Shown: positions 4,013-52,171 of the stretch, piece after piece
How the letters are laid out: each line of letters starts with the position of its first letter
How positions within the stretch are numbered: the first letter of the stretch is position 1
Assembly (NCBI GenBank): GCA_023135835.1
Contig: JAGLSI010000001.1
Span: 2,400 to 66,399 of the forward strand
Origin: Minisyncoccota bacterium
Lineage (GTDB): Bacteria; Patescibacteriota; Minisyncoccia; Phycocordibacterales; UBA12079
Direction: 5' to 3'
Length of the DNA stretch: 64,000 bases
Position numbers and translations under genes: made by a program
The notes under the pieces: model-generated
Database searches by the model: none
Told to the model about the DNA's origin: nothing
The model's input: the letters and a program-made list of their open reading frames with translations, nothing else

Positions 4013-4096
4013 GGAGAGAGTAAAGCGACGGAGTTATTTAGATGCTTCTAAGTATAAAATTACTTATCTAGATAATAAAATTAATAAATAATAATA

Positions 4097-4198
4097 GAAA
4101 GTTCATAAAGTCCATAAAGTTTATAAAGTGAAAAAATTGTTTTACAATTTTTTAAAAAACTTTTAACTTTTAACTTTATAAACTTTTAACTAAAAGTT
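4097..4198 (+). repeat. intergenic inverted-repeat leader element copy A (GTTCATAAAGTCCATAAAGT...central hairpin...ACTTTATAAACTTTTAAC) ending at rplK AUG
   Basis: one of seven similar tripartite elements in the window. Confidence 0.7.
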
Positions 4199-4939: not shown

Positions 4940-5419
4940 TTGTTTTTAAAATATTTTTTATGTTATTATATTGGAAATATGAAAAAAATTAATAGAAATT
5001 TAGTTGAAGCAGGAAATGCTAGAAATGAAGATTATAAACAGCTTTTAAAAAAAATTATTAAAGACGGTTTATGTCCTTTTTGTTGGGAAAATTTTGAAAA
5101 GTATCATCCTAAACCTATTTTTGAAAAAAGAAAATATTGGTTAGTTTCAGAAAATATTTATCCATACGAAAATTCAAAGAATCATTTTATACTTGTTGCT
5201 AAAAGACATTTAATATTTCCAAGCGAGTTATCTAAGGAAGAGTGGCAGGAATTACTTGAATTAATAGAGTTTTTAAAAGAAAAAACTAACTCAAATAGCG
5301 GTACTTTGTTAATGCGTTTTGGGGAAACAATTAATACAGGAGCTTCTGTTGAGCATTTACATGCCCAGTTTATAGTTGCAAAAGATAAGAGGTATCCGAT
5401 TATTACTAGAATTGGTTAA
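4940..5419 (+). CDS. HIT-superfamily (GalT/Ap4A-phosphorylase-like) protein; alternative start 4979
   Basis: C-terminal histidine triad SVEHLHAQFIV; CPFC motif; sits where rplA normally follows rplK. Confidence 0.55.
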   Translation: MFLKYFLCYYIGNMKKINRNLVEAGNARNEDYKQLLKKIIKDGLCPFCWENFEKYHPKPIFEKRKYWLVSENIYPYENSKNHFILVAKRHLIFPSELSKEEWQELLELIEFLKEKTNSNSGTLLMRFGETINTGASVEHLHAQFIVAKDKRYPIITRIG

Positions 5420-6279
5420 TTATCTTGAATTAAGATAACCTCAATATTAAAAGCATTAAAAATATTTTCTGCATCTAAGACAGAATAACCCTCTGAATAA
5501 TAAACCTTTTTAATCCCTGCACCTGCTATTAATTTTGCGCAGGTTGGGCATGGAAAGGTTGTTACATAAATTGATGCCCCGTCTAAAGATATACCTTCTT
5601 TAGCTGCATAACTAATCAAACTTGCTTCAGAGTGAATTGCTGTAGATAAATCGTATCTTTCTCCTGCATCAAAATTACTTCTTGGGTCTCCGTAAATATC
5701 CATACTAAAATCTGTTGGAACATGTTTGTTATATCCTGATAAGATAACCTTATTATCTTTAACGATAACTGAACCAACTTGCCGCCACCAATCAGAGCTT
5801 AATTTTTTTTGTTTTAAAGCTTCGCCCATCATTGTTTGATGGAATTTCTCAATAGTTATTTTCCTATTAGGGTGAACTTCTGTTTCTTGTAGGGTGATAG
5901 GTTTATCCCAGCGTAAAAAAACATTTTCAAAGCTTATGTTTTTATTATCTTTAAAATACTTTTTTTGAATTTCTTTTGATACAGCTTCGTCTGGAAAGAT
6001 TATTTCAAAATTTTCTTCTTTTTTAATTTCTTCTAAATTGTTTTTATCCAAAATATTAACATTTTCAAAAATATTAAGTGATTTAATTGCTTTCTGCATA
6101 ACCATTTCATCCATTGTTCTTAAGTCTCTTTCAAAATATTTATAAATAGAAGATTCTATAAGTAAATTTTTATCAATTAGGTATATATTAGTAGGAAATT
6201 TTTTAAATAATTTAATATAACCTGCATGCAGAACAGGGACAAAAGCAATTAAAATTTGTTTTGTTTTATTAGTATTCAT
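5416..6279 (-). CDS. dCMP deaminase (ComEB-like) with ~140-aa N-terminal extension of unknown function
   Basis: C-terminal HSEASLISYAAKEG...PCPTCAKLIAGAGI zinc-binding cytidine/dCMP deaminase motifs. Confidence 0.8.
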   Translation of the reverse strand: MNTNKTKQILIAFVPVLHAGYIKLFKKFPTNIYLIDKNLLIESSIYKYFERDLRTMDEMVMQKAIKSLNIFENVNILDKNNLEEIKKEENFEIIFPDEAVSKEIQKKYFKDNKNISFENVFLRWDKPITLQETEVHPNRKITIEKFHQTMMGEALKQKKLSSDWWRQVGSVIVKDNKVILSGYNKHVPTDFSMDIYGDPRSNFDAGERYDLSTAIHSEASLISYAAKEGISLDGASIYVTTFPCPTCAKLIAGAGIKKVYYSEGYSVLDAENIFNAFNIEVILIQDN

Positions 6280-7025: not shown

Positions 7026-7931
7026 TTATATTGCAACAGGAATTTCTGGCATAGATGGATGAGCTTTGTAATCAAATAAAGAAAAATCATCTTTTCTATA
7101 ATCAAAAATACCATCTCTTTCAATATGTTTCACTCTTGGAAAAGGGAATGGTTTTCTTTTGATTAATTTTTTTGCAAAAGGTATTTGGTCCAGATAAATA
7201 TGAGCATCCAATATTGTATGAACATATTCATAAGCTTCATATCCTGTAGCTTTGGCTAAAGCTAAGGTTAATGCAGCGTACTGAATCATATTAGAAGGAA
7301 CTCCAATAAGAATATCACCAGATCTTTGAACCATTGTGAGTGTTAATTTCTTATTAACAATTCTCACATGAATTAGTCCATGGCAAGGTACAACAACAAC
7401 CTTACGATTTTTTCCTTTTCCGCTGAAAATATATTCAGGAATAAAAGGGGTGATTATGTGTGTTCTTAAGTGGGGTATCTCTTTGATTTGTTCAACCAAA
7501 TTTTTGAATTGGTTGAATGTTTCTCCGTTTACCATTGGAAAATCATGAAAAGCAACTCCGTAAGATCCATGTCCAAGATCTCCCATTTCTAAACCCATTT
7601 GAGAGCATTTTTTTTCAGTAACCCATGATTTCCACCAAGAACAACCAAATTTTTCAAGCTCTTCTTGAGTTCGGGCTCCATTAATAAATCCAAAAAGTTC
7701 TCCGATAGGAAACTTCCAAAATGAAGAAATATTCCTTTCTGTAATTATTGGGAAACCGTTACTTAAACGGAATTTCATTGGTGTAGACCCTGGTAGAAAT
7801 AAGGCGCCTACATGTTCACTCTCTTTGTTTACAAGTTGAGTTTTTTCTTCCTTTTCTCCATTTTTCAATACTTCTTTAATAAGATTTTGATACTGATAAT
7901 CAACAGTTCTTTCCTTATTATAATTAATCAT
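7026..7931 (-). CDS. thyA: thymidylate synthase
   Basis: PCH active-site Cys, MVQRSGDILIGVPSNMIQYAALT, DAHIY, C-terminal PVAI as in E. coli ThyA. Confidence 0.85.
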   Translation of the reverse strand: MINYNKERTVDYQYQNLIKEVLKNGEKEEKTQLVNKESEHVGALFLPGSTPMKFRLSNGFPIITERNISSFWKFPIGELFGFINGARTQEELEKFGCSWWKSWVTEKKCSQMGLEMGDLGHGSYGVAFHDFPMVNGETFNQFKNLVEQIKEIPHLRTHIITPFIPEYIFSGKGKNRKVVVVPCHGLIHVRIVNKKLTLTMVQRSGDILIGVPSNMIQYAALTLALAKATGYEAYEYVHTILDAHIYLDQIPFAKKLIKRKPFPFPRVKHIERDGIFDYRKDDFSLFDYKAHPSMPEIPVAI

Positions 7932-8054
7932 TATTATCCCCCTTATTTATATTTTATTTTAAAATAATTACAATCTAAATATTTTATACTCTTTATTATT
8001 AAGAAAAGCAATATCTAATAGAAATAAAGAAATAATTGTGCTAATATTTTATTT

Positions 8055-11000
8055 ATGACTGAAAAAAATAAAGATGAAAAAGAATTGCAAAAATCTGAAA
8101 CAGCTTTAGGAGAAGAACGAGTTTTAGAATTTTGGAATAAATCAAATACTTTTAAAAAATCAGAAGAAAAAGATGCTCCCAACGGGGATTTTACATTTTA
8201 TGACGGCCCTCCTTTTGCGACAGGAACTCCTCATTTTGGGCATATTTTAGCTGGAACTATTAAAGATGCTATTCCTCGTTATCAAACAATGAAAGGGAAG
8301 AAAGTGATTAGAAAATGGGGTTGGGATTGTCACGGTTTACCTTTAGAAAATATTATTGAAGAAGAGTTGGGTTTAGCTACAAAAAAAGATATTGAAGATT
8401 TTGGTATTGAAAAATTTAATGAATCAGCTAATTCTAAAGTGCTTCGCTATGCTGAATATTGGGAAAAAGTAATTCCTAGACTTGGTCGCTGGGTAGATAT
8501 GCAAGATCCTTACAGAACGATGGATACTAGTTATTCTGAATCAGTATGGTGGTCATTTAAAGAAATTTATAATAAAGGTTTGATTTATGAAGGTTTTAAG
8601 TCAATGCACTATTGTCCTCGTTGTGGAACTACTCTTTCAAATTTTGAGGTTAATCAAGGGTATAAAGATATTAAGGATTTATCAGTAACTGTTAAGTTTG
8701 AACTTGAGGACCCCATCAGAACTAACGGTTTAGGAAAACCTACTTCTGACGGGACAAGTAACCCTAAGACATATATTTTAGCTTGGACAACTACCCCATG
8801 GACGCTTCCTGGTAATATGGCTCTCGCAATAAATAGTAGAGCTGTTTATTGTAAAGTAAAAAGTAGAAGTGAAGAGGGGGAAATATTTATTCTCGCTAAA
8901 GAAAGATTAGACGAAGTATTTAAAGACAAAGAATATGAAATTTTAGAAGAATTTGATGGGTCAAAAATTATTGGTAAAAAATATAAACCAGTTTTTGATT
9001 ATTATATAAATGAAGATATTGAAAATAAACAAAATGCTTGGAAGATTTATGGAGCTGATTTTGTGAGTATGGAAGACGGAACAGGGGTAGTACACCTTGC
9101 TCCAGCTTTTGGTGAAGATGATTTAAATTTAGCTCAGAAAGAAGGAATTCCTGTAATCCACCATGTAGATTTGGAAGGTAAATTTAAAAAAGAAGTAAAG
9201 GAATTTGCAGGAACCCATGTAAAACAAAAAGAAGACCACCAAGCAACTGATATTGAGATAATTAAATCTTTAGCGACAAAAGGGTTGTTGTTTTCAAAAG
9301 AAAAAATAGAACATTCATATCCTCATTGTTGGAGATGTCATACTCCGTTGCTAAATTATGCAACTTCTTCTTGGTTTCTAGCAACTACAAAAATAAAAGA
9401 TAAAATTATTGCTGAAAACAAAGCGATTAAATGGGTGCCTGAAAATATTAGAGACGGGAGAATGGGAAAATGGTTAGAAGGGATGAGGGATTGGGCAATT
9501 TCTCGTTCTCGTTATTGGGGAGCTCCTTTACCTGTTTGGAAATGTGAAGAATGTGATGAAAAGAAAATAATCGGTTCTATTGATGAAATAAAAAAAGAAA
9601 CAAAAAGCACCAACCAGTTTTTTGTTATTCGTCATGGTGAAGCTGATAATAATGTTTTAAGTGTTTGTTCAAAAGGAGTAGCTGATAAACATCATTTAAC
9701 TGAAAAAGGAAAGGAACAAATTTCTATTTCCGCTAAGGAATTGAAAAATAAAAAAATTGATTTAATTATTAGTTCTCCGTATATTCGTACTAAAGAGTCT
9801 GCTGAAATATTAGCTAAAGAATTAGGAGTAAAAGAAATTATTGAAGACAGTAGGGTAGGAGAGGTAAATAGTGGTGACTTTGGCGGGAAGTCTGTTTCAG
9901 AATATCGTAACTTTTTTTCATCCGAAGAAGATTATTTTAAAAAAGCTCCAGAAGGAGGAGAAAGTTTTGATGATATTAAAAAAAGAGTAAGTGAGTTTTT
10001 GTATGATGTAGACGAAAAATATTCTGATAAAATTATTTTAATTGTAGGGCACGAGACTATTAACTGGATGTTAAGAGCGGGGGCTCAAGGAATGAATCCT
10101 TATGAAGCTATAGAATTAAAGAATGAAGTTGGTTTATCGAAAAATGCAGAATGGTATCAATTGGATTTTACGCCAATTCCTCATAATAGAAATTATGAAT
10201 TAGATTTACATCGCCCTTATATAGATGAGGTAGAATTTTCTTGTTCTTGTGGAGGAAAAATGAAAATTATTAAAGAAGTTTTTGATTGTTGGTATGAGTC
10301 AGGCTCAATGTCTTTTGCCTCTAAACATTATCCTTTTGAAAATCTTGATATATTTAATCCTGAAAAAGGAGTTGGTTATCCAGCTAATTTTATTGCTGAA
10401 GGATTAGACCAAACTCGTGGATGGTTTTATTCAATGCTAGTTTTATCAGTAGCCTTGTTTGATAAAGCTGCTTATCAAAATGTAATTGTGAATGGTTTGG
10501 TTATGGCAGAAGATGGACAAAAAATGTCTAAATCAAAACAGAATTTTTCAGATCCTATGGATGTTGTAAATAAATACGGTGCTGATGCTGTTAGATATTA
10601 TTTATTATCTTCTCCTTTAATGAAAGCTGAAGATTTGAATTTCACTGATAAAGGAGTGGATGAGGTTTTGAAAAAGAATATATTAAGATTTAAAAATGTT
10701 TTATCTTTTTATGAATTATATAAAGATGAAAAAGTATCTGATGTAGAAGTTAAGGATAGTCAAAATATTTTAGATAGGTGGGTTTTAAGTCGTTTGAATG
10801 AGTTATCTCAAGAGGTTTCTAAAAATATGGATAATTATGAGATTGATAAGGCTGTTAGACCTATTGCTGATTTTGTAGATGATTTATCAACTTGGTATTT
10901 AAGAAGGTCGCGAGATAGATTTAAAGGTGAAGACCAACAAGATAAGGATTTTGCGATTGTAACGACTAAATATATTTTAGAGAATTTAGCAAAAGTTTAT

Positions 11001-11606
11001 GCTCCAGTTATGCCTTTTGTTGCAGAAGAAATTTGGCAAAAAGTAACTGAAAATAATTTTAAAGATGAAAATAAATCAGTGCATTTGGAAGATTGGGTTG
11101 AGAGGGGTGAAGTGAATGAAGAATTAATTGAAGAAATGGAAGTTGTAAGAACTATTATTTCTCTTGGTTTAGAGATTAGAGCAAAAGAAGGTGTTAAGGT
11201 AAGGCAACCACTTCAAAAATTAAAAGTTAAAAATGAAAAACTAAAAGAAAAAGATGAGCTTGGTGAGTTAATAAAAGATGAGTTAAATGTAAAAGAATTT
11301 GCTTTTGATGAAAATATTGAAAATGAAGTGGAGCTTGATTTAGGGATTACACCAGAGTTAGAAAAAGAGGGGGATTTTAGAGAATTTTTGAGAAATATTC
11401 AGATTTTTAGAAAAGATTCTGGGTTAAAAGCTCATGATGAAATTAATTTAGTTATAAAAACTGATAATTTAGGAAAAGAATTATTAGAAAAGTTTGAAGA
11501 TGAATTAAAGCGAGTAGCGGGAATAAAAGAAATTCAGTTTGTTGAAGTAAATGATGGAAAGGAAATAGTAATTAAAGAATATAACTTTAAAATTAAAATT
11601 ATTTAA
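8055..11606 (+). CDS. ileS: isoleucine--tRNA ligase with inserted histidine-phosphatase (PGM-like) domain
   Basis: HIGH-type motif PHFGHIL, KMSKS, editing domain, Zn motifs; insert ~9610-10190 carries RHGE, SSPYIRTKESA, LIVGHETINWMLR motifs. Confidence 0.9.
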   Translation: MTEKNKDEKELQKSETALGEERVLEFWNKSNTFKKSEEKDAPNGDFTFYDGPPFATGTPHFGHILAGTIKDAIPRYQTMKGKKVIRKWGWDCHGLPLENIIEEELGLATKKDIEDFGIEKFNESANSKVLRYAEYWEKVIPRLGRWVDMQDPYRTMDTSYSESVWWSFKEIYNKGLIYEGFKSMHYCPRCGTTLSNFEVNQGYKDIKDLSVTVKFELEDPIRTNGLGKPTSDGTSNPKTYILAWTTTPWTLPGNMALAINSRAVYCKVKSRSEEGEIFILAKERLDEVFKDKEYEILEEFDGSKIIGKKYKPVFDYYINEDIENKQNAWKIYGADFVSMEDGTGVVHLAPAFGEDDLNLAQKEGIPVIHHVDLEGKFKKEVKEFAGTHVKQKEDHQATDIEIIKSLATKGLLFSKEKIEHSYPHCWRCHTPLLNYATSSWFLATTKIKDKIIAENKAIKWVPENIRDGRMGKWLEGMRDWAISRSRYWGAPLPVWKCEECDEKKIIGSIDEIKKETKSTNQFFVIRHGEADNNVLSVCSKGVADKHHLTEKGKEQISISAKELKNKKIDLIISSPYIRTKESAEILAKELGVKEIIEDSRVGEVNSGDFGGKSVSEYRNFFSSEEDYFKKAPEGGESFDDIKKRVSEFLYDVDEKYSDKIILIVGHETINWMLRAGAQGMNPYEAIELKNEVGLSKNAEWYQLDFTPIPHNRNYELDLHRPYIDEVEFSCSCGGKMKIIKEVFDCWYESGSMSFASKHYPFENLDIFNPEKGVGYPANFIAEGLDQTRGWFYSMLVLSVALFDKAAYQNVIVNGLVMAEDGQKMSKSKQNFSDPMDVVNKYGADAVRYYLLSSPLMKAEDLNFTDKGVDEVLKKNILRFKNVLSFYELYKDEKVSDVEVKDSQNILDRWVLSRLNELSQEVSKNMDNYEIDKAVRPIADFVDDLSTWYLRRSRDRFKGEDQQDKDFAIVTTKYILENLAKVYAPVMPFVAEEIWQKVTENNFKDENKSVHLEDWVERGEVNEELIEEMEVVRTIISLGLEIRAKEGVKVRQPLQKLKVKNEKLKEKDELGELIKDELNVKEFAFDENIENEVELDLGITPELEKEGDFREFLRNIQIFRKDSGLKAHDEINLVIKTDNLGKELLEKFEDELKRVAGIKEIQFVEVNDGKEIVIKEYNFKIKII

Positions 11607-22933: not shown

Positions 22934-23060
22934 AAGTCAAAAGTTCATAAAGTCCATAAAGTCTGTAACCTGCCTGCCGGCAGGCAGGAGTAAAAATCAC
23001 AAAGCGATTTTTATGAAAAAGACTTTCGACTTTCAACTTTATAGACTTTCAACTAATGTT
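22934..23060 (+). repeat. inverted-repeat leader element copy B with embedded GC palindrome CCTGCCTGCCGGCAGGCAGG
   Basis: 5' arm GTCAAAAGTTCATAAAGTCCATAAAGT, hairpin aaaaatcacaaagcgattttt, 3' arm GACTTTCGACTTTCAACTTTATAGACTTTCAACTAA. Confidence 0.7.
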
Positions 23061-23528: not shown

Positions 23529-23727
23529 TAGTTGAAAGTTCTTAAAGTCTATAAAGTTAAAAGTGAAAAAATTTGCAGAGCAAATTTTTATAACTCTTAA
23601 CTAAAATAAAAACTTTATAAACTTTTAACTTTATATGCACTGCATATAATTCCTACACTCGGATTATATGAAAATTCATTTTCATAAATCCTCACTTGAA
23701 ATTATAAACTTTTAACTAATTAAAATT
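23529..23727 (+). repeat. inverted-repeat leader element copy C (expanded, ~200 bp)
   Basis: GTTGAAAGTTCTTAAAGTCTATAAAGT...gaaaaaatttgcagagcaaattttt...AAACTTTTAACTAA. Confidence 0.65.
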
Positions 23728-29371: not shown

Positions 29372-29521
29372 TAGTAGACTTCTTTAAAAATTATTTTTAA
29401 AGCAGGTGGTCGAAGTCCGACCTCTTAACTTGTATACCAGTGATTTTTAATTATTAAAATATTGTTTAATTATTACTGAGGTCGTACTTCTTTTGAAAAA
29501 ATAATTTTTAAAGAAGTCTAC
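29372..29521 (+). repeat. structured element: 24-bp perfect outer stem enclosing GAAGTCCGACCTCTTAACTTGTATACCAGTGA core (copy 1)
   Basis: core re-occurs at 33514-33547; candidate ncRNA or leader. Confidence 0.45.
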
Positions 29522-29659
29522 GTTAAAATTAACAAACGAAATTATTAATTTGTTTATTAGCCGCATAAAATTTTTTTATTTTATGCATTATGATTTCTTA
29601 AAAAACATTATTATTTTTTTATCAATTAATTTATTTTAAGAAATTTTTAAAAATACATT

Positions 29660-32600
29660 ATGAGTATATTTAAACTTAAGGACACTGCGGTAATGAAAGT
29701 TATCTCAGTTTTCGCAGGTAGTGCTATGGCTCTTACTCTTGTGTTTGGTGGTGCAGTTGCTCCAGCTCAAGCTCAAACAGTAGAAGAACTTACAGCACAA
29801 ATAAATTCTTTGCTAGCAATGATTACATCTTTGCAAGCTCAATTAACAACAATCGGAGGAGGTACTGTATCAGGAGTATCTTATAGCTTCACAACAAACC
29901 TTTCACAAGGAGATAGTGGGGCAGACGTTTTGAATCTTCAAAAAGTTCTTAACATGAGTGCAGACACTCAGGTTGCAGTAACAGGAGTAGGTTCAGCAGG
30001 ATTGGAGACAGAATATTTTGGTTCTTTGACTAAAACAGCTGTAATTAAATTCCAGAACAAATACGCTTCTGAAATTTTGACACCAGTTGGATTAACAGCA
30101 GGAACAGGATATGTTGGTCCTTCAACAAGAGCTAAATTGAACACAATGACAGCTCCAGTTGTACCAGTAACTCCAATTGACCCAACAACACCAGTTGTAG
30201 TACCTACAGGAACAGGATTAACTGTTTCAGCAGGAGCACAACCTACAGCTAATTTAGCTGCTGGAGGTGCAGCAAGAGTACCTTTCACAAAAGTAGTACT
30301 TACAGCTAGCGCTGATGGAGCTGTTGTAGTTGACTCTATTTTAGTAGAGAGAACAGGTTTGTCACAAGACGCTGCGTTCGCAGGAATCGTTCTTTTGGAC
30401 GAAGATGGAACACAACTTGGGATTGCAAAAACTTTGAACTCATTACATCAAGCAACTGTTGGAGAAGCCTTCACAGTTAATGCGGGAACTTCAAAGACAA
30501 TTACAATCGCAGCTAACATGACTACTAAAACATTGATGGCTGATTACACAGGGCAAGTTGGTTCATTGACAGTAGTAGGAGTAAATACTTCAGCTACAGT
30601 TAACGGAGCTCTTCCAATTGTAGGAACAAGTCATACAATGAACTCTTCTCTAACAATTGGAACAGTTTCAGTTGCAAGAGGAATAAATGATCCAAATACA
30701 GCTGCTACAAAAGAAGTTGGAGTATCAGATTATACTTTCGCTTCAGTTAAGATAACAGCTGGTTCAGCAGAAAAGGTTAGAATTCATTCTTTGAGATGGA
30801 ATCAATCAGGTTCAGCTTCAGCAGCAGATTTAGAAAATCTAAAAACTTATGTTGACGGAACAGCTTATGATATTACAGTTTCAGCTGATGGAAAATATTA
30901 CACAGCTGACTTTGGAAGTGGAATTGTGATTGACAAAGGTCTTTCAAAAGAAATTTCAATCAAAGGTGATATCGTAGGAGGATCTGGAAGAAATATCGTA
31001 TTTGATATTTATAAATCAACTGATTTATATGTAACAGGAGAAACTTACGCATACGGAATTACACCACCAGCAGGAAGTGGAACTGCAGCTACAACTGGCT
31101 CAGATTTTCTTGCAACAACACCGTGGTATGATAACTGTCATGTAACAGTTTCAGACGGAACTCTAACAGTTTCTAAAGCGACTTCAGTAGAATCACAAAA
31201 TGTTGCTGAGGTTGTAGCTAATCAAGTTCTTGGAGGATTTGATGTAGAAGTTAAAGGAGAAGCCGTTTCAGTAGCTAGTCTTGTATTTACAGGAACTATC
31301 GCTGGAGCAACAGGAGGAGTTGGAACAGATATTGATAATGTTACTTTGATAGACGCTAATGGTTCAGTAGTTGCTGGTCCAGTAGATGCTACAGGAGCTG
31401 CATTAACTGCAACTGTTACATTCTCAGATACAGTAACATTCCCAATTGGAACAGGAACTTATACATTGAAAGGTCAATTAGCGAGTGCGTTCGTTAATGA
31501 TCAAACACTTGTATTTGAAACTGATCCTGATGATAACTGGACAACAGTTACAGGACAAACAACAGGAAATGCTATTGTTCCTGCACCAACATCAGCTGTT
31601 ACTTCAAATACAATGACAATGAAAGCTGGTTCAGCTGTAATTAGTACATCTGCAAGCCCGGTAGCACAAAACATTGTAGCTGGAGCACAAAGCTTTGTAT
31701 TTGCTAATTTCCAATTTGATGCAACAGCATCAGGTGAAGATGTTAGATTTACATCACTTGTGTTATATAACACAGCTAGTGCTGAATCAGAATATCAAAC
31801 AGGATGTCAATTATTTGATGGGGATACTGCTTTGAACACTGGTTCAAATAAGAAAGATATTGCAGCAGATGAAGCAACATCTCAAACATTCACATTAGAT
31901 AGTGGTGGAGTGACAATTCCAAAAGGAACATTAAAGACTATTGCTTTAAAATGTAACCTTTCAGCTTCAGCAGTTGCTCAAACTTACTTGTGGAAGATGT
32001 CAGCAGAACAATCAGGAACAGGTCTTGACTCTGGAACAACTATCACAATTGCAGCAGCTAATGTGACTGGAGATGGTCAATTGATGTCATCTACTGAAAA
32101 AGGAACACTTACAGTTACTGAACAATCAGGTGCTTACACAATTGCAGCGGCTGGTACTACAGATGTAACTCTAGGTTCATTGAAATTCACAGGAACAAAT
32201 GAATCAATTGCATTGAAGAAATTAGCTCTTCAACTAACAGATGCTTCAAGTACACCTTCAGATTTAGTTAAAGTAACTTTGTGGGATGGAGCAACAAAAG
32301 TTGGTGAAACTATCTTCACAGGTACAAACAATAATGCAACATCAACTTTGTCAGGAAGTTTCATAATTCCTAAAGACGGAACTAAGATTCTAACACTTAA
32401 AGGTGATTTAGCAGAAATTGGTACATCTAAGGTTGGAACTCAAGGAGCATTATTGATCGTTAATTACGATGATGATGACCCTACAGGAACACAAGGTGTA
32501 GGTGATCAATCAGGTACAACTATTAGCAGAACTTCTGCTTCAACAGATTCAACATTTGATGGAGTAAGAGTATTTAGGGCTTACCCTGAAATGGCTAAGA

Positions 32601-33232
32601 TTGATATCTCAGGATCATTAACACCTGGAACTACTGATCTTTACAGATTTAGCGTAACAGCTAAAGATAAAGATGGAGTAAGTGAAGGGGTTGGTATTTA
32701 CAAGTTCACACTTAACTTAGCAACATCATCAGATAATGCTACAACAGGTTCAACTACAGTTACAAATGTAAAAGTGTATGCTTACACTGATTCAGCATTT
32801 TCAACAACAGTTGATCAATCAGCAGATGGTACTGCTTACACAAGTGGACAAGTAGTAGCAACAGTTCCACAACCATTAGGAACAACAGCAGGAGTTGATA
32901 ATGAATTATTATTGAGTTCAGCTCTACAAATCCCAGCAGGTCAAACTTATTACTTTAAAGTAGTAGGAACAACCAGCATCGTTTCTGGAACAGGAACAGA
33001 CGCTAATAACTGGGTTAAATCTTACATCGCTGGAGATTCAGCATACGCTGTAAACAGTGCAAGATTAATGGAATTAGCTGATACAGTAGATAGTGATACA
33101 AATGATGCTTTCATTTGGTCACCATATGCAACAACTACTTCCGTAACAACTACTCATTATGACTGGACAAACGGATATAAGATTTACGGTTTGCCAGCAG
33201 ATGGTATGGACTCAGAAACTGTTAACCAATAA
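29660..33232 (+). CDS. S-layer-like large surface protein with signal peptide and PG-binding-like module; probable start 29693
   Basis: signal peptide MKVISVFAGSAMALTLVFGGAVAPAQA, coiled segment, PG_binding_1-like GDSGADVLNLQKVLN...FQNKY, ~900 aa Thr/Gly/Ser/Val-rich repeats. Confidence 0.7.
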   Translation: MSIFKLKDTAVMKVISVFAGSAMALTLVFGGAVAPAQAQTVEELTAQINSLLAMITSLQAQLTTIGGGTVSGVSYSFTTNLSQGDSGADVLNLQKVLNMSADTQVAVTGVGSAGLETEYFGSLTKTAVIKFQNKYASEILTPVGLTAGTGYVGPSTRAKLNTMTAPVVPVTPIDPTTPVVVPTGTGLTVSAGAQPTANLAAGGAARVPFTKVVLTASADGAVVVDSILVERTGLSQDAAFAGIVLLDEDGTQLGIAKTLNSLHQATVGEAFTVNAGTSKTITIAANMTTKTLMADYTGQVGSLTVVGVNTSATVNGALPIVGTSHTMNSSLTIGTVSVARGINDPNTAATKEVGVSDYTFASVKITAGSAEKVRIHSLRWNQSGSASAADLENLKTYVDGTAYDITVSADGKYYTADFGSGIVIDKGLSKEISIKGDIVGGSGRNIVFDIYKSTDLYVTGETYAYGITPPAGSGTAATTGSDFLATTPWYDNCHVTVSDGTLTVSKATSVESQNVAEVVANQVLGGFDVEVKGEAVSVASLVFTGTIAGATGGVGTDIDNVTLIDANGSVVAGPVDATGAALTATVTFSDTVTFPIGTGTYTLKGQLASAFVNDQTLVFETDPDDNWTTVTGQTTGNAIVPAPTSAVTSNTMTMKAGSAVISTSASPVAQNIVAGAQSFVFANFQFDATASGEDVRFTSLVLYNTASAESEYQTGCQLFDGDTALNTGSNKKDIAADEATSQTFTLDSGGVTIPKGTLKTIALKCNLSASAVAQTYLWKMSAEQSGTGLDSGTTITIAAANVTGDGQLMSSTEKGTLTVTEQSGAYTIAAAGTTDVTLGSLKFTGTNESIALKKLALQLTDASSTPSDLVKVTLWDGATKVGETIFTGTNNNATSTLSGSFIIPKDGTKILTLKGDLAEIGTSKVGTQGALLIVNYDDDDPTGTQGVGDQSGTTISRTSASTDSTFDGVRVFRAYPEMAKIDISGSLTPGTTDLYRFSVTAKDKDGVSEGVGIYKFTLNLATSSDNATTGSTTVTNVKVYAYTDSAFSTTVDQSADGTAYTSGQVVATVPQPLGTTAGVDNELLLSSALQIPAGQTYYFKVVGTTSIVSGTGTDANNWVKSYIAGDSAYAVNSARLMELADTVDSDTNDAFIWSPYATTTSVTTTHYDWTNGYKIYGLPADGMDSETVNQ

Positions 33233-33354
33233 CAGTTGAAATAGATAGGTTTTGTTAAATCTTATTAAGTTTCTGTCAAAATTTTTATCGGATCTTTTAA
33301 AGTGAAAATAGAAACAAGGCGAAATAAAATAGAACTAAGCAAAACAATAATAAA

Positions 33355-33384
33355 AAACACCCACATCCAGTGGGTGTTTTTTAT
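33355..33384 (+). terminator. rho-independent terminator (acacccacatccagtgggtgtttttt)
   Basis: 8-bp stem plus T6 downstream of surface-protein gene. Confidence 0.6.
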
Positions 33385-33513
33385 TATGTTATCAAAATCC
33401 TTGGATATCGGATGTCCAAGGATTTTCAATGGGCTCAAGTCGTTGATTCGTTGAAGTATTTTATAGCTTAATAATAGCGCTCCAAGCGCTACTATTATGT
33501 TGAATAAGGAAAG

Positions 33514-33640
33514 GAAGTCCGACCTCTTAGCGTGTATACCAGTAACCTTTAGCTATTTTCTTTTGTTTTGCTATTACTGAAGTCGGTCTTCTTAATAATC
33601 CAGCAGCCCATCGTTAACGAAGTCAGACTTCTTCTGACAG
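33514..33640 (+). repeat. structured element core GAAGTCCGACCTCTTAGCGTGTATACCAGTAA ... ATTACTGAAGTCGG (copy 2)
   Basis: ~85% identical to core at 29411-29442 and 29473-29491. Confidence 0.45.
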
Positions 33641-33649
33641 CAAACAATT

Positions 33650-33658
33650 TATCCACAA
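33650..33658 (+). promoter_or_regulatory. perfect DnaA box TTATCCACA, 16 bp upstream of TTGACT-16-TATTAT promoter (33675-33702)
   Basis: exact consensus 9-mer. Confidence 0.45.
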
Positions 33659-33853
33659 TTTGTTTAAAAACTCTTGACTTTTTTATTCACTTTGCTATTA
33701 TATAGAAAGTACTTGAATCTTGGCTTGCCAATATTTAGGTACTATGAAAAGAGTCATTATTCCTTCGGGGGTTCTGGCTTTTTTCATTGTCAAAATTCAC
33801 TTATTTAATAGTAGCGCTTGGAGCGCTGTTACTAAAATTCAGATAATATTTAC

Positions 33854-33915
33854 AGCGCTTGGAGCGCTGTAATAGGGTAATATAATTTAATTATGAATAA
33901 TATAAATTTAAAAAC
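33854..33915 (+). repeat. direct repeat (copy 1) of promoter region plus first 7 codons of gene 35132 (MNNINLK then stop)
   Basis: ~60 bp identical to 35095-35156, includes AGCGCTTGGAGCGCT palindrome. Confidence 0.7.
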
Positions 33916-33941
33916 AAAATGAGAGTCAACTATTCCAGTTA

Positions 33942-33963
33942 ACCTGCCTTTGCCGGCAGGCAG
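33942..33963. repeat. GC palindrome CCTGCCTTTGCCGGCAGGCAGG nested in a longer hairpin (33912-33995)
   Basis: member of 4-copy family (22969, 33942, 56330, 58004). Confidence 0.55.
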
Positions 33964-34040
33964 GCTGGAGTAATTAACTCTCATTTTGTTTTTAGTTTCT
34001 CTTGATTTAATCCAATATTTTTAATAAAATTAATAGTATT

Positions 34041-34727
34041 ATGCAAAATAAAAATTTACAAATAGGTTTAATTACAGGTGTATTATTAGTAATTTTGGTT
34101 TTTTATGTTTATCAAGATTTATCTATTAAAGATGATGGTATAGTAGCAACAACAACTGGTCAGGTAGTAAATTTATCTGATGATTTAAATACTGCAGGAA
34201 ATGATAATTTGATAATTAAGGAGATTAAAGATGACAATATTCAAAACACAAATGTTCTTATAATGCCTAACCTAGATAGAGAAATAGAGTTTTTAGAGAA
34301 CTTTCCCGAAGAAGCTAGGCAAATCATGATTGATAGAATAAATACAGTAGTGCAGGATATAAAAGATAAACCAGGTTCTTATGACGATTGGATCTCTTTA
34401 GGATTGCAGAGGAAAATAATAGAGGACTATGAGGGGGTTGAATTAGCTTGGGAGTATGCAAAGTACTTAGAACCAGATAGATTCCTTGCTTGGAGTAATT
34501 TAGGTGATTTAAATGCATATTATTTAAGTAATAATATAAAAGCAGAGGAAAATTATATTAAAGCTATAGAATTAAACACTCATCAAATACAAACATATAT
34601 TAAAATTGTAGAGTTTTATAAAGAATTCTTAAACGATACAGAAAAAGCTATTTCTATATTAGAAAAGGGGATAGAAGTAAATCCTAATTCTCAAGAATTA
34701 AAAGACCTCCTATCTACCCTAAATTAG
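34041..34727 (+). CDS. N-terminally anchored protein with TPR-like C-terminal helices
   Basis: TM LQIGLITGVLLVILVFYVY; AWSNLGDLNAYYLSNNIKAEENYIKAIELN TPR-like repeats. Confidence 0.5.
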   Translation: MQNKNLQIGLITGVLLVILVFYVYQDLSIKDDGIVATTTGQVVNLSDDLNTAGNDNLIIKEIKDDNIQNTNVLIMPNLDREIEFLENFPEEARQIMIDRINTVVQDIKDKPGSYDDWISLGLQRKIIEDYEGVELAWEYAKYLEPDRFLAWSNLGDLNAYYLSNNIKAEENYIKAIELNTHQIQTYIKIVEFYKEFLNDTEKAISILEKGIEVNPNSQELKDLLSTLN

Positions 34728-34755
34728 TCGCGCTCGGAGCGCGACTAATCTTTAG

Positions 34756-34764
34756 TTATCCACA
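34756..34764 (+). promoter_or_regulatory. perfect DnaA box TTATCCACA upstream of TATAAT at 34797
   Basis: exact consensus 9-mer. Confidence 0.4.
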
Positions 34765-34812
34765 AGTTATCAAGGTTTTTGGGGGATATTTAAGGGTATA
34801 ATATAGCTATGA

Positions 34813-34913
34813 ATCCCGTTAGAGATTTGATAAAAATAGACAAAACGGGAATGAGAAATTAATAATTTAAATAATAGGTAATTTATTAAAAGTAAATTAT
34901 CTCTAACGGGATG
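34813..34913 (+). promoter_or_regulatory. conserved leader stem ATCCCGTTAGAGAT / ATCTCTAACGGGAT (perfect complement) overlapping AUG at 34911
   Basis: third and most perfect copy of the secE-type leader. Confidence 0.5.
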
Positions 34914-35054
34914 AATAAGACATCTTTTAAGTTTATAAGTGGTTTTGTGTTGATTTTAGTCGTTTCTTTAGGGGTTTTAGTCTATTTTAGTACTGACAGA
35001 GATATAGAAAAAGATATTATTCCAGCAGAAAACTTAGCAGCAGAACAAATTTAA
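34911..35054 (+). CDS. small N-terminally anchored protein (47 aa), not in ORF track
   Basis: ATG placed exactly as in the other two leader copies; TM FISGFVLILVVSLGVLVYF. Confidence 0.35.
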   Translation: MNKTSFKFISGFVLILVVSLGVLVYFSTDRDIEKDIIPAENLAAEQI

Positions 35055-35094
35055 CAGAATATTGCAGCGCTCCAAGCGCTGCAATTAATAGTAG

Positions 35095-35156
35095 CGCTTG
35101 GAGCGCTGTAATAGGGTAATATAATTTAATTATGAATAATATAAATTTAAAAAAAT
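35095..35156 (+). repeat. direct repeat (copy 2) spanning promoter and 5' end of 35132 gene
   Basis: identical to 33854-33915. Confidence 0.7.
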
Positions 35157-35395
35157 ACAAAAAATATTTGGTTGGTATTTTGGTAGTGGTTTTGATAGTA
35201 GGGGGTATTTATTATTATCAGAATAAGGGGTTTGAATTTACTTTAATTACAAATAGTGAAGAATATGGTGAGTTTTTAGCCAGAGGAGGTAGTGAACAAG
35301 AATATTTAGAGTGGGTTAAAGAATTAGAAAAGCAAGATATTTATGGAGGAACAACACCGGAAGAAACATTGGATTTATATATAAAAGTTTTATAA
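35132..35395 (+). CDS. small N-terminally anchored protein
   Basis: 87 aa, TM YLVGILVVVLIVGGIYYY, terminator hairpin 35421-35459 downstream. Confidence 0.5.
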   Translation: MNNINLKKYKKYLVGILVVVLIVGGIYYYQNKGFEFTLITNSEEYGEFLARGGSEQEYLEWVKELEKQDIYGGTTPEETLDLYIKVL

Positions 35396-39957: not shown

Positions 39958-40254
39958 ATGATGATATTTGTTTATGTGATAATCGGAGTGGTAATTGGGT
40001 ACTTTGTTTTTGGTGGGTCTATGAATAAGAATGCTAAGAAAAACGAAGTTTTGGAGATTTTGGATGAAAAAGATAAGAAGATTCTGGCTTTGATTGAAGA
40101 AAAAGAGAAAGTTACTAATAATGATATAGAGAAATTGTTAGGGATAGCAGATAGTACTGCAACTAAATATTTACAACAATTGGAAGATAAAGGAAAAATT
40201 ATACAAAGAGGAAAAACTGGGAAATATACTTATTACGAAAAGGTTTCAAAGTAG
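39958..40254 (+). CDS. small membrane-anchored winged-HTH protein (paralog of 51833-52111)
   Basis: TM MMIFVYVIIGVVIGYFVF then DIEKLLGIADSTATKYLQQLEDKGKIIQRGKTGKYTYY; ~65% identity to second copy. Confidence 0.6.
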   Translation: MMIFVYVIIGVVIGYFVFGGSMNKNAKKNEVLEILDEKDKKILALIEEKEKVTNNDIEKLLGIADSTATKYLQQLEDKGKIIQRGKTGKYTYYEKVSK

Positions 40255-43445: not shown

Positions 43446-43559
43446 CGAGTCAAAAGTTTATAAAGTTCATAAAGTCTATAAAATAAAATTACAAAGTAAT
43501 TTTTTTAATGACAATAAACTTTTAACTTTTAACATTACAAACTTTAAACTAATATAATT
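43446..43559 (+). repeat. inverted-repeat leader element copy D
   Basis: GTCAAAAGTTTATAAAGTTCATAAAGTCTATAAAAT ... aaaattacaaagtaatttt ... AAACTTTTAACTTTTAACATTACAAACTTTAAACTAA. Confidence 0.7.
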
Positions 43560-44213: not shown

Positions 44214-44507
44214 TTGGTTATGGCGAAGAAAATTGTTTTTTACGGGAAAGAAGATTTTTCTATCATACTTATTCTCTTGAATGATACTGTTATGGAGAAG
44301 GTACTCGCCGATATTGTTAAAGGGGATAGAGAAAATGGTAAAACAATGCCAATTATTGTTTTAAAGGATACTGATATAAAAGGTTTGTCTCAGCGTCTCT
44401 TTAGAGAATTTGAAGAAGATATTTCGGTTCCTATTGGTGAAGGCTTGTTTCAATTTAAAGATGCTGAAGACTTAACAAAGTATATTCAGCAGCAAGAGAA
44501 TATATGA
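44214..44507 (+). CDS. hypothetical protein
   Basis: 97-aa ORF, SD aaaggtaaaaggag, terminator 44518-44551. Confidence 0.4.
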   Translation: MVMAKKIVFYGKEDFSIILILLNDTVMEKVLADIVKGDRENGKTMPIIVLKDTDIKGLSQRLFREFEEDISVPIGEGLFQFKDAEDLTKYIQQQENI

Positions 44508-44633
44508 AGGGATATTGATGGCTGGGTTCTTAGGACCCAGCCATTTTTTAATTTTGTTGCTGGTATAAAAAATAGATGTTATTATTAATTGTAATATATA
44601 AAAGTGAGTGTATAAATCTCATTTTAAATTACT

Positions 44634-45251
44634 ATGGAAACATTAAGTAAATTATTTGGTAACGCTGCTAAAATAAAAATAATGAGACTGTTTTTGTCTA
44701 ATGATGATGTTATTTTTGATAATGCTGAAATATCAAAAAGGACAAAAGTATCTTTGGTAAATCTTCGTAAAGAACTGAAAATTTTTGAAAGTATTTCTTT
44801 GATTAAAAAAAGAATTTTTTATAAAGAAGTTATTAAAAAAGTAAAAGGAAAAGAAGTTGTTGAAAAGAAAAAAACAAGCGGTTGGATTTTAGACCCAAGT
44901 TTTTCTTTGCTAGCTCCTCTAAAAAATTTATTAATTAAAGGAAGTCCTGTTGCTCAAAAAGATATAATTAACCGTTTGAAGGGAGGAGGAGTTCTTAAAT
45001 TAATAATTACTTCAGGTGTATTTATTCAAGAACCAGATAGTAGAGTAGATATTTTAATAGTAGGAGATAATTTAAATAGTTCTTATTTAGAACGAGCAAT
45101 TCGTATATTAGAGTCTGAGCTAGGTCAAGAATTAAAGTATTTTATATTAGAAACTGATGATTTTAATTATCGTTTGGGAGTTTATGATAAACTTTTAAGG
45201 GATATTTTAGACTATTCTCATAAGAAAATCGTAAATAAGTTGGATTTTTAG
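44634..45251 (+). CDS. hypothetical protein with N-terminal wHTH
   Basis: AKIKIMRLFLSNDDVIFDNAEISKRTKVSLVNLRKELKIFESISLIKK. Confidence 0.45.
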   Translation: METLSKLFGNAAKIKIMRLFLSNDDVIFDNAEISKRTKVSLVNLRKELKIFESISLIKKRIFYKEVIKKVKGKEVVEKKKTSGWILDPSFSLLAPLKNLLIKGSPVAQKDIINRLKGGGVLKLIITSGVFIQEPDSRVDILIVGDNLNSSYLERAIRILESELGQELKYFILETDDFNYRLGVYDKLLRDILDYSHKKIVNKLDF

Positions 45252-45266
45252 TATCTAAATTAGGTT

Positions 45267-45275
45267 TTATCCACA
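45267..45275 (+). promoter_or_regulatory. perfect DnaA box TTATCCACA upstream of 45457 gene
   Basis: exact consensus 9-mer; TATAGACATATAAT -10-like 20 bp downstream. Confidence 0.4.
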
Positions 45276-45456
45276 GTTTTTGTATATTTTTATAGACATA
45301 TAATGATATTATATAAATATGGTATTTATTAATACTAAAATAAAGGTCGTTAAGTCATAAAACCAATGATTTTTTGGTGGTTGATTATTGACCATTCAAT
45401 TAAGTTTTGGGGATATGATGATAATTCATTATTAGTTTTAATTTTTTAGAAAAAAT

Positions 45457-46140
45457 ATGATATTACAAACATGGAGTGAAGTATTGTCACAATCTTTTCA
45501 AAGTCTTTGGATTGGAGTAATGGGCTTTGTTCCAAACTTAATAATCGCAATAATAATTTTTATTATTGGGTGGGTTGTTGGAGTTTTATTTGGGAGAGTA
45601 GTTTCTCAGATAATTCATTCATTAGGTATAGACAAACTTTTGAGAAGTGCTAGTGTTGAAAAAACATTAAATAAAGCAGGTTTCAATTTAAACGCCGGTA
45701 ATTTTTTCGGTGCTTTAGTGAAATGGTTTATTATTGTAGTTTTTGCCGTAGCTGCCTTTGATGTATTAGGGCTTGACCAAGTAAATTTATTTTTACAACA
45801 AGTAGTTCTACTATATCTACCTAGAGTAATTGCAGCAGCAGCTATTCTTTTGATTGCTGTTATTATTGCAGATGCTACTGAGAATCTTGTAATAGGTTCC
45901 GCAAAAGCAGTTGGTGCTAGAAAATCTCAATTTGGATTTTTAGGTACATCTGTTAAGTGGGCAATTTGGGTATTCGCTGGATTGATGGCTCTTTATCAAT
46001 TAGGAGTTGCATCAGCTTTTATTCAAACTTTGTTTACAGGATTAATCGTTGCTATTTCTCTATCATTGGGATTAGCTTTCGGATTAGGAGGAAAGACTGC
46101 CGCGTCAGATGTGATTGAAGACTTAAGAAAGAAAATGTAA
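45457..46140 (+). CDS. membrane protein with repeated 'conserved TM helix' (MscS-associated type) segments
   Basis: two similar TM hairpins; terminator 46160-46198. Confidence 0.55.
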   Translation: MILQTWSEVLSQSFQSLWIGVMGFVPNLIIAIIIFIIGWVVGVLFGRVVSQIIHSLGIDKLLRSASVEKTLNKAGFNLNAGNFFGALVKWFIIVVFAVAAFDVLGLDQVNLFLQQVVLLYLPRVIAAAAILLIAVIIADATENLVIGSAKAVGARKSQFGFLGTSVKWAIWVFAGLMALYQLGVASAFIQTLFTGLIVAISLSLGLAFGLGGKTAASDVIEDLRKKM

Positions 46141-49111: not shown

Positions 49112-49420
49112 ATGAAAATTAAAAAAAATGACAATGTAATAATAATTGCTGGGAAAGATAAGGGTAAAACAGGTAATGTTTTACGAGCTTATCCTTCTTT
49201 AAACAAGGTTTTGGTTGAAGGTATAAATAAGAAGAAAAAGAATCAAAGAGCAACTAAGTCTGGGCAAAAAGGGCAAATTATTGAAAAAGAATTTCCAGTT
49301 GATGTTTCCAATGTAGCTTTCATAGACCCTAAAACAAAAAAAGCGACAAGAATTGGTAAGAAAGAAATAAAAGGGAAGATGGAAAGAGTAACAAAGAAAA
49401 GTGGGTCGGTTATAAGCTAG
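49112..49420 (+). CDS. rplX: 50S ribosomal protein L24
   Basis: KOW MKIKKNDNVIIIAGKDKGKTGNV. Confidence 0.85.
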   Translation: MKIKKNDNVIIIAGKDKGKTGNVLRAYPSLNKVLVEGINKKKKNQRATKSGQKGQIIEKEFPVDVSNVAFIDPKTKKATRIGKKEIKGKMERVTKKSGSVIS

Positions 49421-49525
49421 TCAAAAGTTAAAAGTTCATAAAGTCTATAAAGTAAAGATTTACGAAGTAAATTTTAAAAAAAAGACTTTCGGCTTTCGAC
49501 TTTATAGACTTTAGACTAAATTAAT
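49421..49525 (+). repeat. inverted-repeat leader element copy E
   Basis: GTCAAAAGTTAAAAGTTCATAAAGTCTATAAAGT...aagatttacgaagtaaatttt...GACTTTCGGCTTTCGACTTTATAGACTTTAGACTAA. Confidence 0.7.
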
Positions 49526-50131: not shown

Positions 50132-50137
50132 TTAAAT

Positions 50138-50165
50138 TTCAATGGCTATGCCCATAGCCATTGAA
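50138..50165. repeat. 28-bp palindromic repeat TTCAATGGCTATGCCCATAGCCATTGAA (left boundary of R-M cassette)
   Basis: identical copy at 52144-52171. Confidence 0.8.
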
Positions 50166-50225
50166 ATTAAGCTTAAAATATAGTTTTGTGAATAATTATT
50201 TTTGAGGTAAAATATAAGTAGTTAT

Positions 50226-51218: not shown

Positions 51219-51231
51219 AATAGTTATTTTT

Positions 51232-51828: not shown

Positions 51829-51832
51829 TAAA

Positions 51833-52111: not shown

Positions 52112-52143
52112 TAAATTCAGAAAACCGTTGATTTTCAATCTAT

Positions 52144-52171
52144 TTCAATGGCTATGCCCATAGCCATTGAA
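52144..52171. repeat. 28-bp palindromic repeat TTCAATGGCTATGCCCATAGCCATTGAA (right boundary of R-M cassette)
   Basis: identical to 50138-50165. Confidence 0.8.

Follow-up and report, generated by a model that had tools for sequence, protein, structure and literature searches.

The Correia elements (CREE/NEMIS) of Neisseria are reported to be substrates of RNase III and sometimes donors of promoters, and repetitive extragenic palindromes (REPs) have been proposed to stabilize mRNAs and to be mobilized via single-strand hairpins. Here we describe a family of palindromic elements of about 100 bp, devoid of open reading frames (ORFs), from a member of the Patescibacteria, a group with tiny, tightly packed genomes that are thought to be poor in repetitive DNA. 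The family was studied in 64,000 nt of contig JAGLSI010000001.1 of a Minisyncoccota bacterium (hereafter "the window", by which this whole stretch is meant), in which six full copies, one half copy before map and one copy with variant arms before adk are present. Comparison with sister genomes showed that copies are gained and lost in the few nucleotides between a stop codon and the next co-directional start codon. On balance, the evidence leans toward small non-autonomous palindromic DNA repeats of the kind represented by MITEs (miniature inverted-repeat transposable elements), REPs or Correia elements.

In general appearance, the elements seem most like the intergenic palindromes of the Correia, REP or ERIC type and like the intervening sequences of rRNA genes. 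Like Correia elements, they are non-autonomous inverted repeats of approximately 100–150 bp which occur in many copies, lie intergenically in or near transcription units and would be co-transcribed as hairpins. However, Correia elements are confined to a single genus and possess defined terminal repeats of 26 bp, an IHF site and a duplicated TA target, whereas the family described here consists of a variable number of tandem 7–9-nt units, shows no duplication and has an arm motif found across phyla. The early genes of phage T7 are separated by RNase III hairpins, which are related but imperfect, occur once per spacer and end just upstream of the next start. The present elements may be compared to them as a family of related imperfect hairpins in the spacers of a polycistronic transcript and near the next start; the T7 sites are, however, fixed and functional in one genome, whereas the window family is insertion-polymorphic between sister genomes. 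Intervening sequences at the helix tips of rRNA are classically removed by RNase III. Hairpin-forming inserts at such tips were also found for the present family, namely in the 16S rRNA gene of another genome (L019) and not among the window copies, but intervening sequences are confined to rRNA genes, whereas the AAAGT family is mainly located at protein-gene junctions. With REP/BIME elements, the family shares the position of an extragenic palindrome within operons, the hairpin potential and the lack of a target duplication, and a Y1-type transposase gene is present in one relative (L122). REPs are imperfect palindromes of 20–40 bp with a GTAG or CGTC tag at one of their ends (PMC3733652); measured against that definition, the window elements differ in their length of about 100 bp, in starting with AGTC or AGTT and in having neither tag. 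The nearest analogue from Bacteroidota that is built from tandem units is the BrickBuilt MITE of Porphyromonas gingivalis, which consists of 23-nt direct tandem units, is species-specific and lies 49–591 nt from coding sequences (PMC4596501). Both families are intergenic and combine tandem short repeats with small inverted ends (PMC4596501), but in the AAAGT family, units of 7–9 nt make up a pair of inverted arrays bordering on the stop and start codons. Searches of the accessible literature for palindromes and MITEs of Patescibacteria (candidate phyla radiation, CPR), for leaderless mRNAs and for exact 17-mers of the arrays yielded no published description of the family.

Structure and Inventory of the Elements

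The window has a G+C content of 29%, and its GC skew is strongly positive. Neither an rRNA nor a tRNA was found in its 64 kb, and no Rfam family matched at the gathering threshold. The left arm of an element is a run of AAAGT units (AAAGTYYAT) of 7 or 9 nt and the right arm a complementary run of ACTTTNN, with outer ends of the form AGTC...AAAGT units and ACTTT units...GACT. Between them lies a small hairpin consisting of A5, a stem of 3–5 bp, a 3-nt loop and T5. A preliminary description of the window had called the 3′ arm the reverse complement of the 5′ arm. This is true of the arrays as such, but the complementarity is imperfect: the 7- and 9-nt units differ in length between the arms, so that the stem is bulged, and in the map copy a 5′ arm that would match is missing.

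Copies were located by several approaches. Patterns of the 5′ arm (27 nt) and the 3′ arm (28 nt), each with up to three mismatches and with shuffled sequences as control, gave six matches for the former (22936, 23531, 43449, 49427 and 52515 on the plus strand, 57184 on the minus strand; none in shuffles) and three in the window for the latter (none expected by chance according to the shuffles). The 5′ arm of the rplK copy (4097–4129) has diverged by more than three mismatches and was recovered by a repeat search, in which the copies are linked to one another by the repeat families D1, D2 and D4, and by a covariance model. This model, built from nine copies and run on the window with filters off, recovered the six full copies with 56–109 bits, the map copy with 25 bits and the adk variant with 22 bits, without any further convincing match in the window. 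In addition, the doubled 9-mer RACTTTNNNRACTTT occurs 16 times, always within elements, compared to an expectation of 0.36. The genes flanking the seven spacers were confirmed by Pfam (NusG and L11, S6 and SSB, SSB and S18, L10 and L7/L12, L24 and L5, S14 and S8, Adk and Map). The copies and their parts are as follows:

4093–4193, plus strand: copy 1, nusG–rplK spacer (85.5 bits, z = −3.6); 5′ arm 4097–4129, central hairpin 4131–4154 with loop TTT, 3′ arm 4158–4193 with the terminal ACTAA; rplK ATG at 4199, 5 nt past ACTAA
22935–23056, plus strand: copy 2, rpsF–ssb spacer (z = −5.6), with a nested GC palindrome at 22969–22988; ACTAA at 23052–23056, ssb ATG at 23061, 4 nt on
23530–23632, plus strand: main hairpin of copy 3, ssb–rpsR spacer (76 bits, z = −6.1)
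23633–23703, plus strand: unrelated repeat of 71 nt ("family 2"), inserted within copy 3 in its 3′ arm
23704–23719, plus strand: displaced 3′-arm end of copy 3, ATAAACTTTTAACTAA; rpsR ATG at 23728, 8 nt on
43448–43552, plus strand: copy 4, rplJ–rplL spacer (z = −2.6); ACTAA at 43548–43552, rplL ATG at 43560, 7 nt on
49419–49519, plus strand: copy 5, rplX–rplE spacer (97.7 bits, z = −4.0), beginning within the rplX stop codon; ACTAA at 49515–49519, rplE ATG at 49526, 6 nt on
52507–52606, plus strand: copy 6, rpsN–rpsH spacer (108.7 bits, z = −7.0); ACTAA at 52602–52606, rpsH ATG at 52612, 5 nt on
56460–56525, plus strand: eighth copy, adk 5′ leader (22 bits, z = −4.7); the family's central hairpin with AGGATTTA / TAAATCCT arms
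57126–57213, plus strand: copy 7, a half copy, adk–map spacer (z = −1.4, no long hairpin); non-complementary left part of AGATTTTA type, central hairpin 57153–57176, ACTTT-type 3′ arm; map ATG at 57220, 6 nt past ACTAA

All seven copies named in the preliminary description, together with the GC palindrome in the second of them, were thus found where it had placed them or within a few bases thereof. Each of the seven ends in ACTAA. The proximity of this end to an ATG is as had been described, with a measured distance of 4–8 nt instead of 5–10 nt. In six copies the left end is located 0–22 nt past the upstream stop codon, and the rplK copy begins 80 nt past it, behind another conserved hairpin. 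Copy 3 had been reported as expanded; it is indeed long, but because of the unrelated repeat nested in its 3′ arm, and the displaced tail duplicates about 15 nt standing immediately before the nested insert.

Filled and Empty Junctions in Related Genomes

Orthologous regions were fetched from contigs of the Pacebacteria group by using S8 (relatives L121–L124) and L11 (relatives L255–L259) as anchors; L11 of L255 is 92% identical to that of the window. The states of the compared junctions are:

S14–S8: 113 nt with the element in the window; 9 nt and empty in L121; 50 nt without a hairpin in L123; the same central hairpin with entirely different repeat arms in L122 and L124
L24–L5: element in the window and in L121; 5 nt and empty in L124
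adk–map: half copy in the window, the same half copy in L121 and L123; 8 nt and empty in L124; hairpin with other arms in L122
nusG–rplK: 186 nt with the element in the window; 3 nt and empty in L255; AAAGT type in L257 and L258; other arms in L256 and L259
secE–nusG: empty in the window and in L255; filled in L256–L259
adk leader: variant copy in the window; absent in L121 and L123
rplJ–rplL: copy 4 in the window; hairpins with other arms in L121 and L124

The insertion is placed next to the stop codon, and on its right side a native A/T-rich stretch of 4–8 nt before the ATG is retained. Furthermore, a composite of arms, GC palindrome and centre, with the palindrome at the same internal position, stands before ssb in the window and before rplK in L258. 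Since these junctions are not orthologous, the composite has moved as a unit. Other small repeats are nested in copies 2 and 3. With MITEs, which are smaller than approximately 500 bp, the elements share the small size, the lack of coding capacity, the terminal inverted repeats, the multiple similar copies and the presence or absence at orthologous sites. A MITE origin had been raised in the preliminary description as an alternative to be judged by sister genomes with empty sites and target-site duplications; the empty sites exist, but the duplications, a defining trait of MITEs, were not detected in any of the five comparisons of filled and empty junctions, and no direct repeat flanks any window copy.

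The missing duplications, which argue against classical cut-and-paste transposition, are one of several observations that weigh against an interpretation as mobile repeats. No transposase gene is present in the window, and between distant inverted arrays only ordinary genes, such as those for an ABC transporter or DapF, were seen by eye in 259 loci, whole genomes not being searched. The sole Y1 transposase gene (Y1_Tnp) encountered, that of L122, is flanked by CTAGGAGGTT..AACCTCCTAG hairpins, which are another palindrome, and hence does not correspond to a REP-associated tyrosine transposase (RAYT) gene flanked by the same repeats. Moreover, the same junctions hold hairpins with the same centre and unrelated arms in several genomes, which could mean local regeneration or selection instead of repeated insertion, and the half copy upstream of map, which lacks a long hairpin, has been kept in three genomes. 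Finally, the copies are unevenly distributed over genes. All eight window copies are located in translation-gene clusters, which account for 32 of the 63 same-strand junctions (p = 0.0027, post hoc), and when only short junctions are considered, 8 of 21 in translation clusters and 0 of 15 others are occupied (p = 0.011, post hoc). Elsewhere, ribosomal-protein genes are found downstream in 12 of 74 cases, a modest excess, for which p ranges from 0.0003 to 0.06 according to the baseline that is assumed. The bias in the window would fit insertion favored by heavy transcription as well as selection tied to high expression.

If the elements are mobile repeats, they might be mobilized via a hairpin or single-strand route similar to that of IS200/IS605 or RAYT, by recombination or by template switching. 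An inserted element would be transcribed within the operon mRNA and fold into an interrupted hairpin of 35–45 bp, the base of which would place the stop codon of the upstream gene next to the start codon of the downstream one. Insertions may be tolerated because re-initiation at the downstream gene would still work across such a juxtaposition. The hairpin would also be a plausible substrate of RNase III and protector of mRNA ends, similar to rRNA intervening sequences, although this would be a side effect of insertion and not the reason for the existence of the element.

Several additional repeats were noted at or near the described copies. A small hairpin (4033–4076, ..TTTAGATGCTTCTAAGTA....TACTTATCTAGATAA) just 3′ of nusG is conserved in five genomes (the window and L256–L259), where it stands upstream of whichever element fills the spacer; it is absent in L255 with its 3-nt spacer. 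The family 2 repeat (ATATG.AGCA.GCATATAATT...CGGATTATAT...ATAAATCCTC.CT.GAAATT) occurs at 23633–23703 of the window, at about 4040–4115 of L121 and at 7855–7947 and 10397–10485 of L124; within the rpsR copy of the window, direct repeats of about 15 nt enclose it, and in L121 and L124 it ends directly at the next ATG (0 nt). The GC mini-palindrome CCTGCC(N)GGCAGG is present at 22969–22988, 33943–33964 and 56330–56351 and in degenerate form at 58003–58021. It was also seen in L123, L258, L106 and L114, inside or beside other hairpins and including unrelated phyla, and looks like a separate tiny palindromic insert.

Folding and Covariation

The six full copies fold better than shuffled sequences, with z between −2.6 and −7.0. 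The map copy has no significant fold, since the repeat that makes up its left part is of another type. As put forward in the preliminary description, pairing of the central hairpin is kept despite sequence change: in a set of 17 copies from the window and four sister genomes, 95.9% of cells are paired, 6 of the 10 pairs are changed on both sides, none of 500 shuffles matches the observed covariation score, and slid registers are likewise far off. The arms differ between loci as well and retain their complementarity. However, covariation of the centre does not separate an RNA element from a DNA palindrome, since the latter predicts pairing equally well. Both AAA/GAA/AGA and TTT/TTC are found in the loop, and the unit therefore lies in either orientation relative to the gene. 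When both strands were folded, neither a pairing advantage nor a preference for G-U pairs was found for the sense strand, and in five of the six full copies the better fold is that of the antisense strand. The orientation of the loop, the folding of the strands and the persistence of the map copy without a long hairpin argue that the palindrome is a property at the DNA level.

Distribution Across Lineages and Genes

A wider scan, in which each species was represented by one genome and three AAAGT units in succession were required, yielded at least 120 loci, and a metagenome scan with the 3′-arm end as query yielded 124 matches. The statements on lineages, array length and distances that follow refer to the matches listed in these scans. 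AAAGT/ACTTT arrays were found in many classes of Patescibacteria (Nomura-, Roizman-, Magasanik-, Sacchari-, Berkel-, Gracili-, Campbell-, Zambryski-, Moran- and Peribacteria), in Bacteroidales, Flavobacteriales, Chitinophaga and Ignavibacteriaceae, and in low-GC metagenome-assembled genomes (MAGs) that bear the label "Gammaproteobacteria". Among cultured isolates, those of Odoribacter, Butyricimonas, Plebeiibacterium, Leyella, Microcoleus and Anabaena contain them as well. The arrays comprise 3 to more than 20 units and are often arranged as an AAAGT array, a variable centre and an inverted ACTTT array. Among 2.9 million viral contigs there were only 10 matches, and a phage origin was rejected on account of this near-absence.

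Measured from the terminal ACT to the ATG of ORFs no shorter than 70 amino acids (aa), the distance peaks sharply at 5–9 nt in Patescibacteria and in other phyla, and in 41 of the 124 metagenome matches an ORF starts 1–9 nt past ACTAA. Ten of 12 full elements abutting a start likewise border, at −2 to 24 nt, on the stop codon of a co-directional ORF upstream. The elements therefore occupy short spacers within operons. Their fixed distance to the ATG, which had been taken as a sign of regulation, is largely a surviving remnant of very short native spacers. The downstream genes identified by Pfam encode IF3, S20 (twice), L2, L22, the gamma and b subunits of ATP synthase (atpG, atpF), PrgI, RNase HII, HGPRT, L33, L15, L13, S9, S16, L18, L28, L11, SecY and Obg, and those for GroEL, AspRS, GAPDH and others were recognized by eye from their N-termini. 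The previously noted clustering on ribosomal-protein genes is seen within the window, where all copies belong to translation-gene operons, but elsewhere the genes are diverse. Copies consisting of the 3′ arm only persist before map and NDK. Solo arrays have a polarity that is significant in two samples, with ACTTT oriented toward starts and AAAGT located behind stops; this polarity was discarded as independent evidence, because decayed halves of palindromes give the same pattern.

In a Magasanikbacteria MAG (L019), the 16S rRNA gene is 1842 nt long compared to a model of 1533 positions and contains two AAAGT-type palindromes at helix tips, each between small GC hairpins:

3110–3215 of L019: first 16S insert
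3525–3610 of L019: second 16S insert

From a comparison by eye to the Escherichia coli sequence, we take the inserts to lie in the helix 40 region and in helix 44. The 3′ end of this 16S rRNA retains the canonical CCUCC anti-Shine-Dalgarno (SD) sequence.

In Odoribacter and Butyricimonas isolates (L042, about 340–590; L079, about 5300–5480; L028, L084 and L112), arrays flank a conserved centre of about 75 nt (..CGGCAGC..GCTGCCGATAAACA..GTCCGAAGGAC.CC.GT); at one end of the whole structure, argC, atpG or another gene starts immediately. This centre has no match in Rfam.

Alternative Explanations

The preliminary description had favored a shared regulatory leader, such as an RNase III site, an operator or an attenuator. 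In the form of a leader of ribosomal-protein genes, this would be an operator or attenuator through which a common trans-acting factor coordinates them. Although seven of the eight copies precede translation-related genes, with significant clustering in the window, and although the central hairpin is conserved and covaries, we give this explanation hardly any credence, and it is largely refuted by the orthologous junctions that are empty in sister genomes. The element is also found before ssb, adk and map and, in other lineages, before many unrelated genes and within 16S rRNA, occurs in both orientations without any advantage of the sense strand, and has wholly different arms at one and the same junction in different genomes. 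In contrast to the leader RNAs of ribosomal-protein genes, which are operon-specific and mimic a site of rRNA, one sequence family precedes eight different genes, and no leader family of Rfam matched the window at the gathering threshold, two element regions at an E-value threshold or six Bacteroidales loci; only generic hairpin (miRNA-type) matches were returned. Selection for a device of mRNA processing and stability, in which an RNase III cut splits the operon mRNA, a 3′ hairpin protects the upstream part and the downstream part obtains a near-leaderless 5′ end, is unlikely, though less so. Processing of the elements by RNase III is possible, and a cut near the base of the hairpin that sets the stop beside the start would yield such a near-leaderless message, which would suit a genome largely without SD sequences. 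The long, imperfect and significantly folding hairpins, the arms that vary by locus and stay complementary, the end of the stem 7–13 nt before the ATG in four copies and the presence in 16S helix tips are consistent with this idea, as is the lack of an SD sequence in most window genes, at least eight of which have a TAnnnT box 6–7 nt before the ATG, a leaderless geometry. On the other hand, the junctions of close relatives work without the element, the map copy is conserved without a long hairpin, and the sense strand shows no preference for G-U pairs while its complement folds better in most full copies.

Similarly, the elements might assist translation, either by U-rich ACUUU repeats acting as an SD-independent enhancer like the epsilon sequence of T7 gene 10 (UUAACUUUAA) or by a hairpin bridge that couples stop to start; we regard this as quite unlikely. 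Such a device would be favored in highly expressed operons of SD-poor phyla, and the exclusive location of the window copies in translation-gene operons, the abundance of ribosomal-protein, IF3, ATP synthase and SecY genes (and, by eye, GroEL) downstream elsewhere, the sharp peak of the distance to the ATG across phyla and the 3′-arm-only copies before map and NDK would be in line with it. The 3′-arm units UUAACUUUA and GACUUUAUA resemble the epsilon motif, but the exact 9-mer is at chance level in the window (6 found, 5.2 expected), which speaks against an identity with the epsilon enhancer. The ACUUU units of full copies are moreover paired in the stem, the polarity of solo arrays is also given by decayed palindrome halves, and sister genomes do without the element. 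Even less probable is an outward promoter cassette, in which the last 3′-arm units provide a −35 and a −10 box (TTGACT, 17 nt, TAGACT) at 5–8 nt from the ATG for leaderless transcripts and the central hairpin insulates against read-through. The rpsH copy has exactly this arrangement, followed by 7 nt and the ATG, with the same spacing as the window's own leaderless-type promoters, and the BrickBuilt MITE of P. gingivalis has bidirectional promoter activity (PMC4596501). The rpsH copy is, however, the sole one that fits well: A at the second position of the putative −10 box is present in only three of seven window copies, no more than three qualify when T at the sixth position is asked for in addition, TA occurs in 32% of the terminal hexamers adjacent to an ATG compared to 23% of non-adjacent and 27% of internal ones (p = 0.35), and promoter-like sites are not more frequent than in shuffles. 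Bacteroidota copies lack TAnnTTTG or have it downstream of the element, and the adk copy is itself located downstream of a promoter. A sigma-70 leaderless promoter was thus rejected, as the −10-like hexamer, in spite of a suitable geometry, shows no conservation and no enrichment; an intrinsic terminator was rejected as well, since the central hairpin, with a stem of 4–5 bp and 2–3 G-C pairs, would be too weak and a terminator scan made no call. Beyond these functions, the AAAGT/ACTTT palindromes of Patescibacteria, Bacteroidota, Ignavibacteriota and others may form one cross-phylum class of mobile operon-junction cassettes, which insert precisely between stop and start by a new transposition route and are kept for SD-independent downstream expression by the hairpin or the U-rich outer arm. 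We put this forward as a speculation that is more likely wrong than right by far. Support of expression could consist in stop-to-start bridging, in near-leaderless mRNAs made by RNase III or in an epsilon-like enhancement, and transposition would be hairpin-dependent, leave no target duplication and be able to enter rRNA helix tips.

With mobile palindromic repeats as the preferred reading, 8 of the 32 junctions in the translation-gene clusters of the window, about a quarter, carry a dynamic palindromic insert, and several of the junctions checked in relatives are likewise occupied. Such inserts are likely to confuse gene callers and operon prediction and, because copies lie inside a 16S rRNA gene, rRNA-based taxonomy. 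The natural pairs of filled and empty junctions offer a test of translation re-initiation across a spacer in SD-poor bacteria, and both a mechanism of mobilization and a spread across phyla are indicated that the searchable literature does not describe. If the elements are neutral, they represent a useful class for annotation and not a new regulatory principle.

Other Features of the Window

Apart from the elements, genes for a C5 cytosine methylase (50226–51218) and an HNH endonuclease (51232–51828) are inserted between rplE and rpsN (50133–52176), bracketed by two copies of the hairpin ATTTCAATGGCTATGCCCATAGCCATTGAA. The insert is absent in L121 and L124, and L123 has a different insert of 8.5 kb at the same spot. 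A direct repeat of 182 nt with 72% identity (40065–40246 and 51928–52109) covers a winged-helix gene (39958–40254) and an ORF just past the HNH gene, which are probably paralogous small helix-turn-helix (HTH) genes. Upstream of S19, the S10-L3-L4-L23-L2 block is missing, and unknown ORFs and a gene for an MscS-like membrane protein are found there (44214–46140); the arrangement is conserved in L121 (4116–5621) and L124 (3950–5558).

The window is almost free of SD sequences. TAnnnT boxes, often with an upstream TG, are located 6–7 nt before the ATG of the genes starting at 531, 8055, 11649, 13292, 18872, 35132, 58887 and 61204, and this pattern suggests that leaderless mRNAs may be widespread in the source organism. 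An ORF of 1190 aa without a Pfam match (29660–33232) lies in a region of higher G+C content (0.36–0.385; 29400–35160) and is flanked by repeats of the GAAGTCCGACCTCTTA type (29412 and 33514) and by a perfect direct repeat of 61 nt (33854–33914 and 35093–35153). Finally, the gene at 8055–11606 encodes an isoleucyl-tRNA synthetase-like protein of 1183 aa with an internal histidine-phosphatase domain (His_Phos_1), and the same architecture is present in L256.

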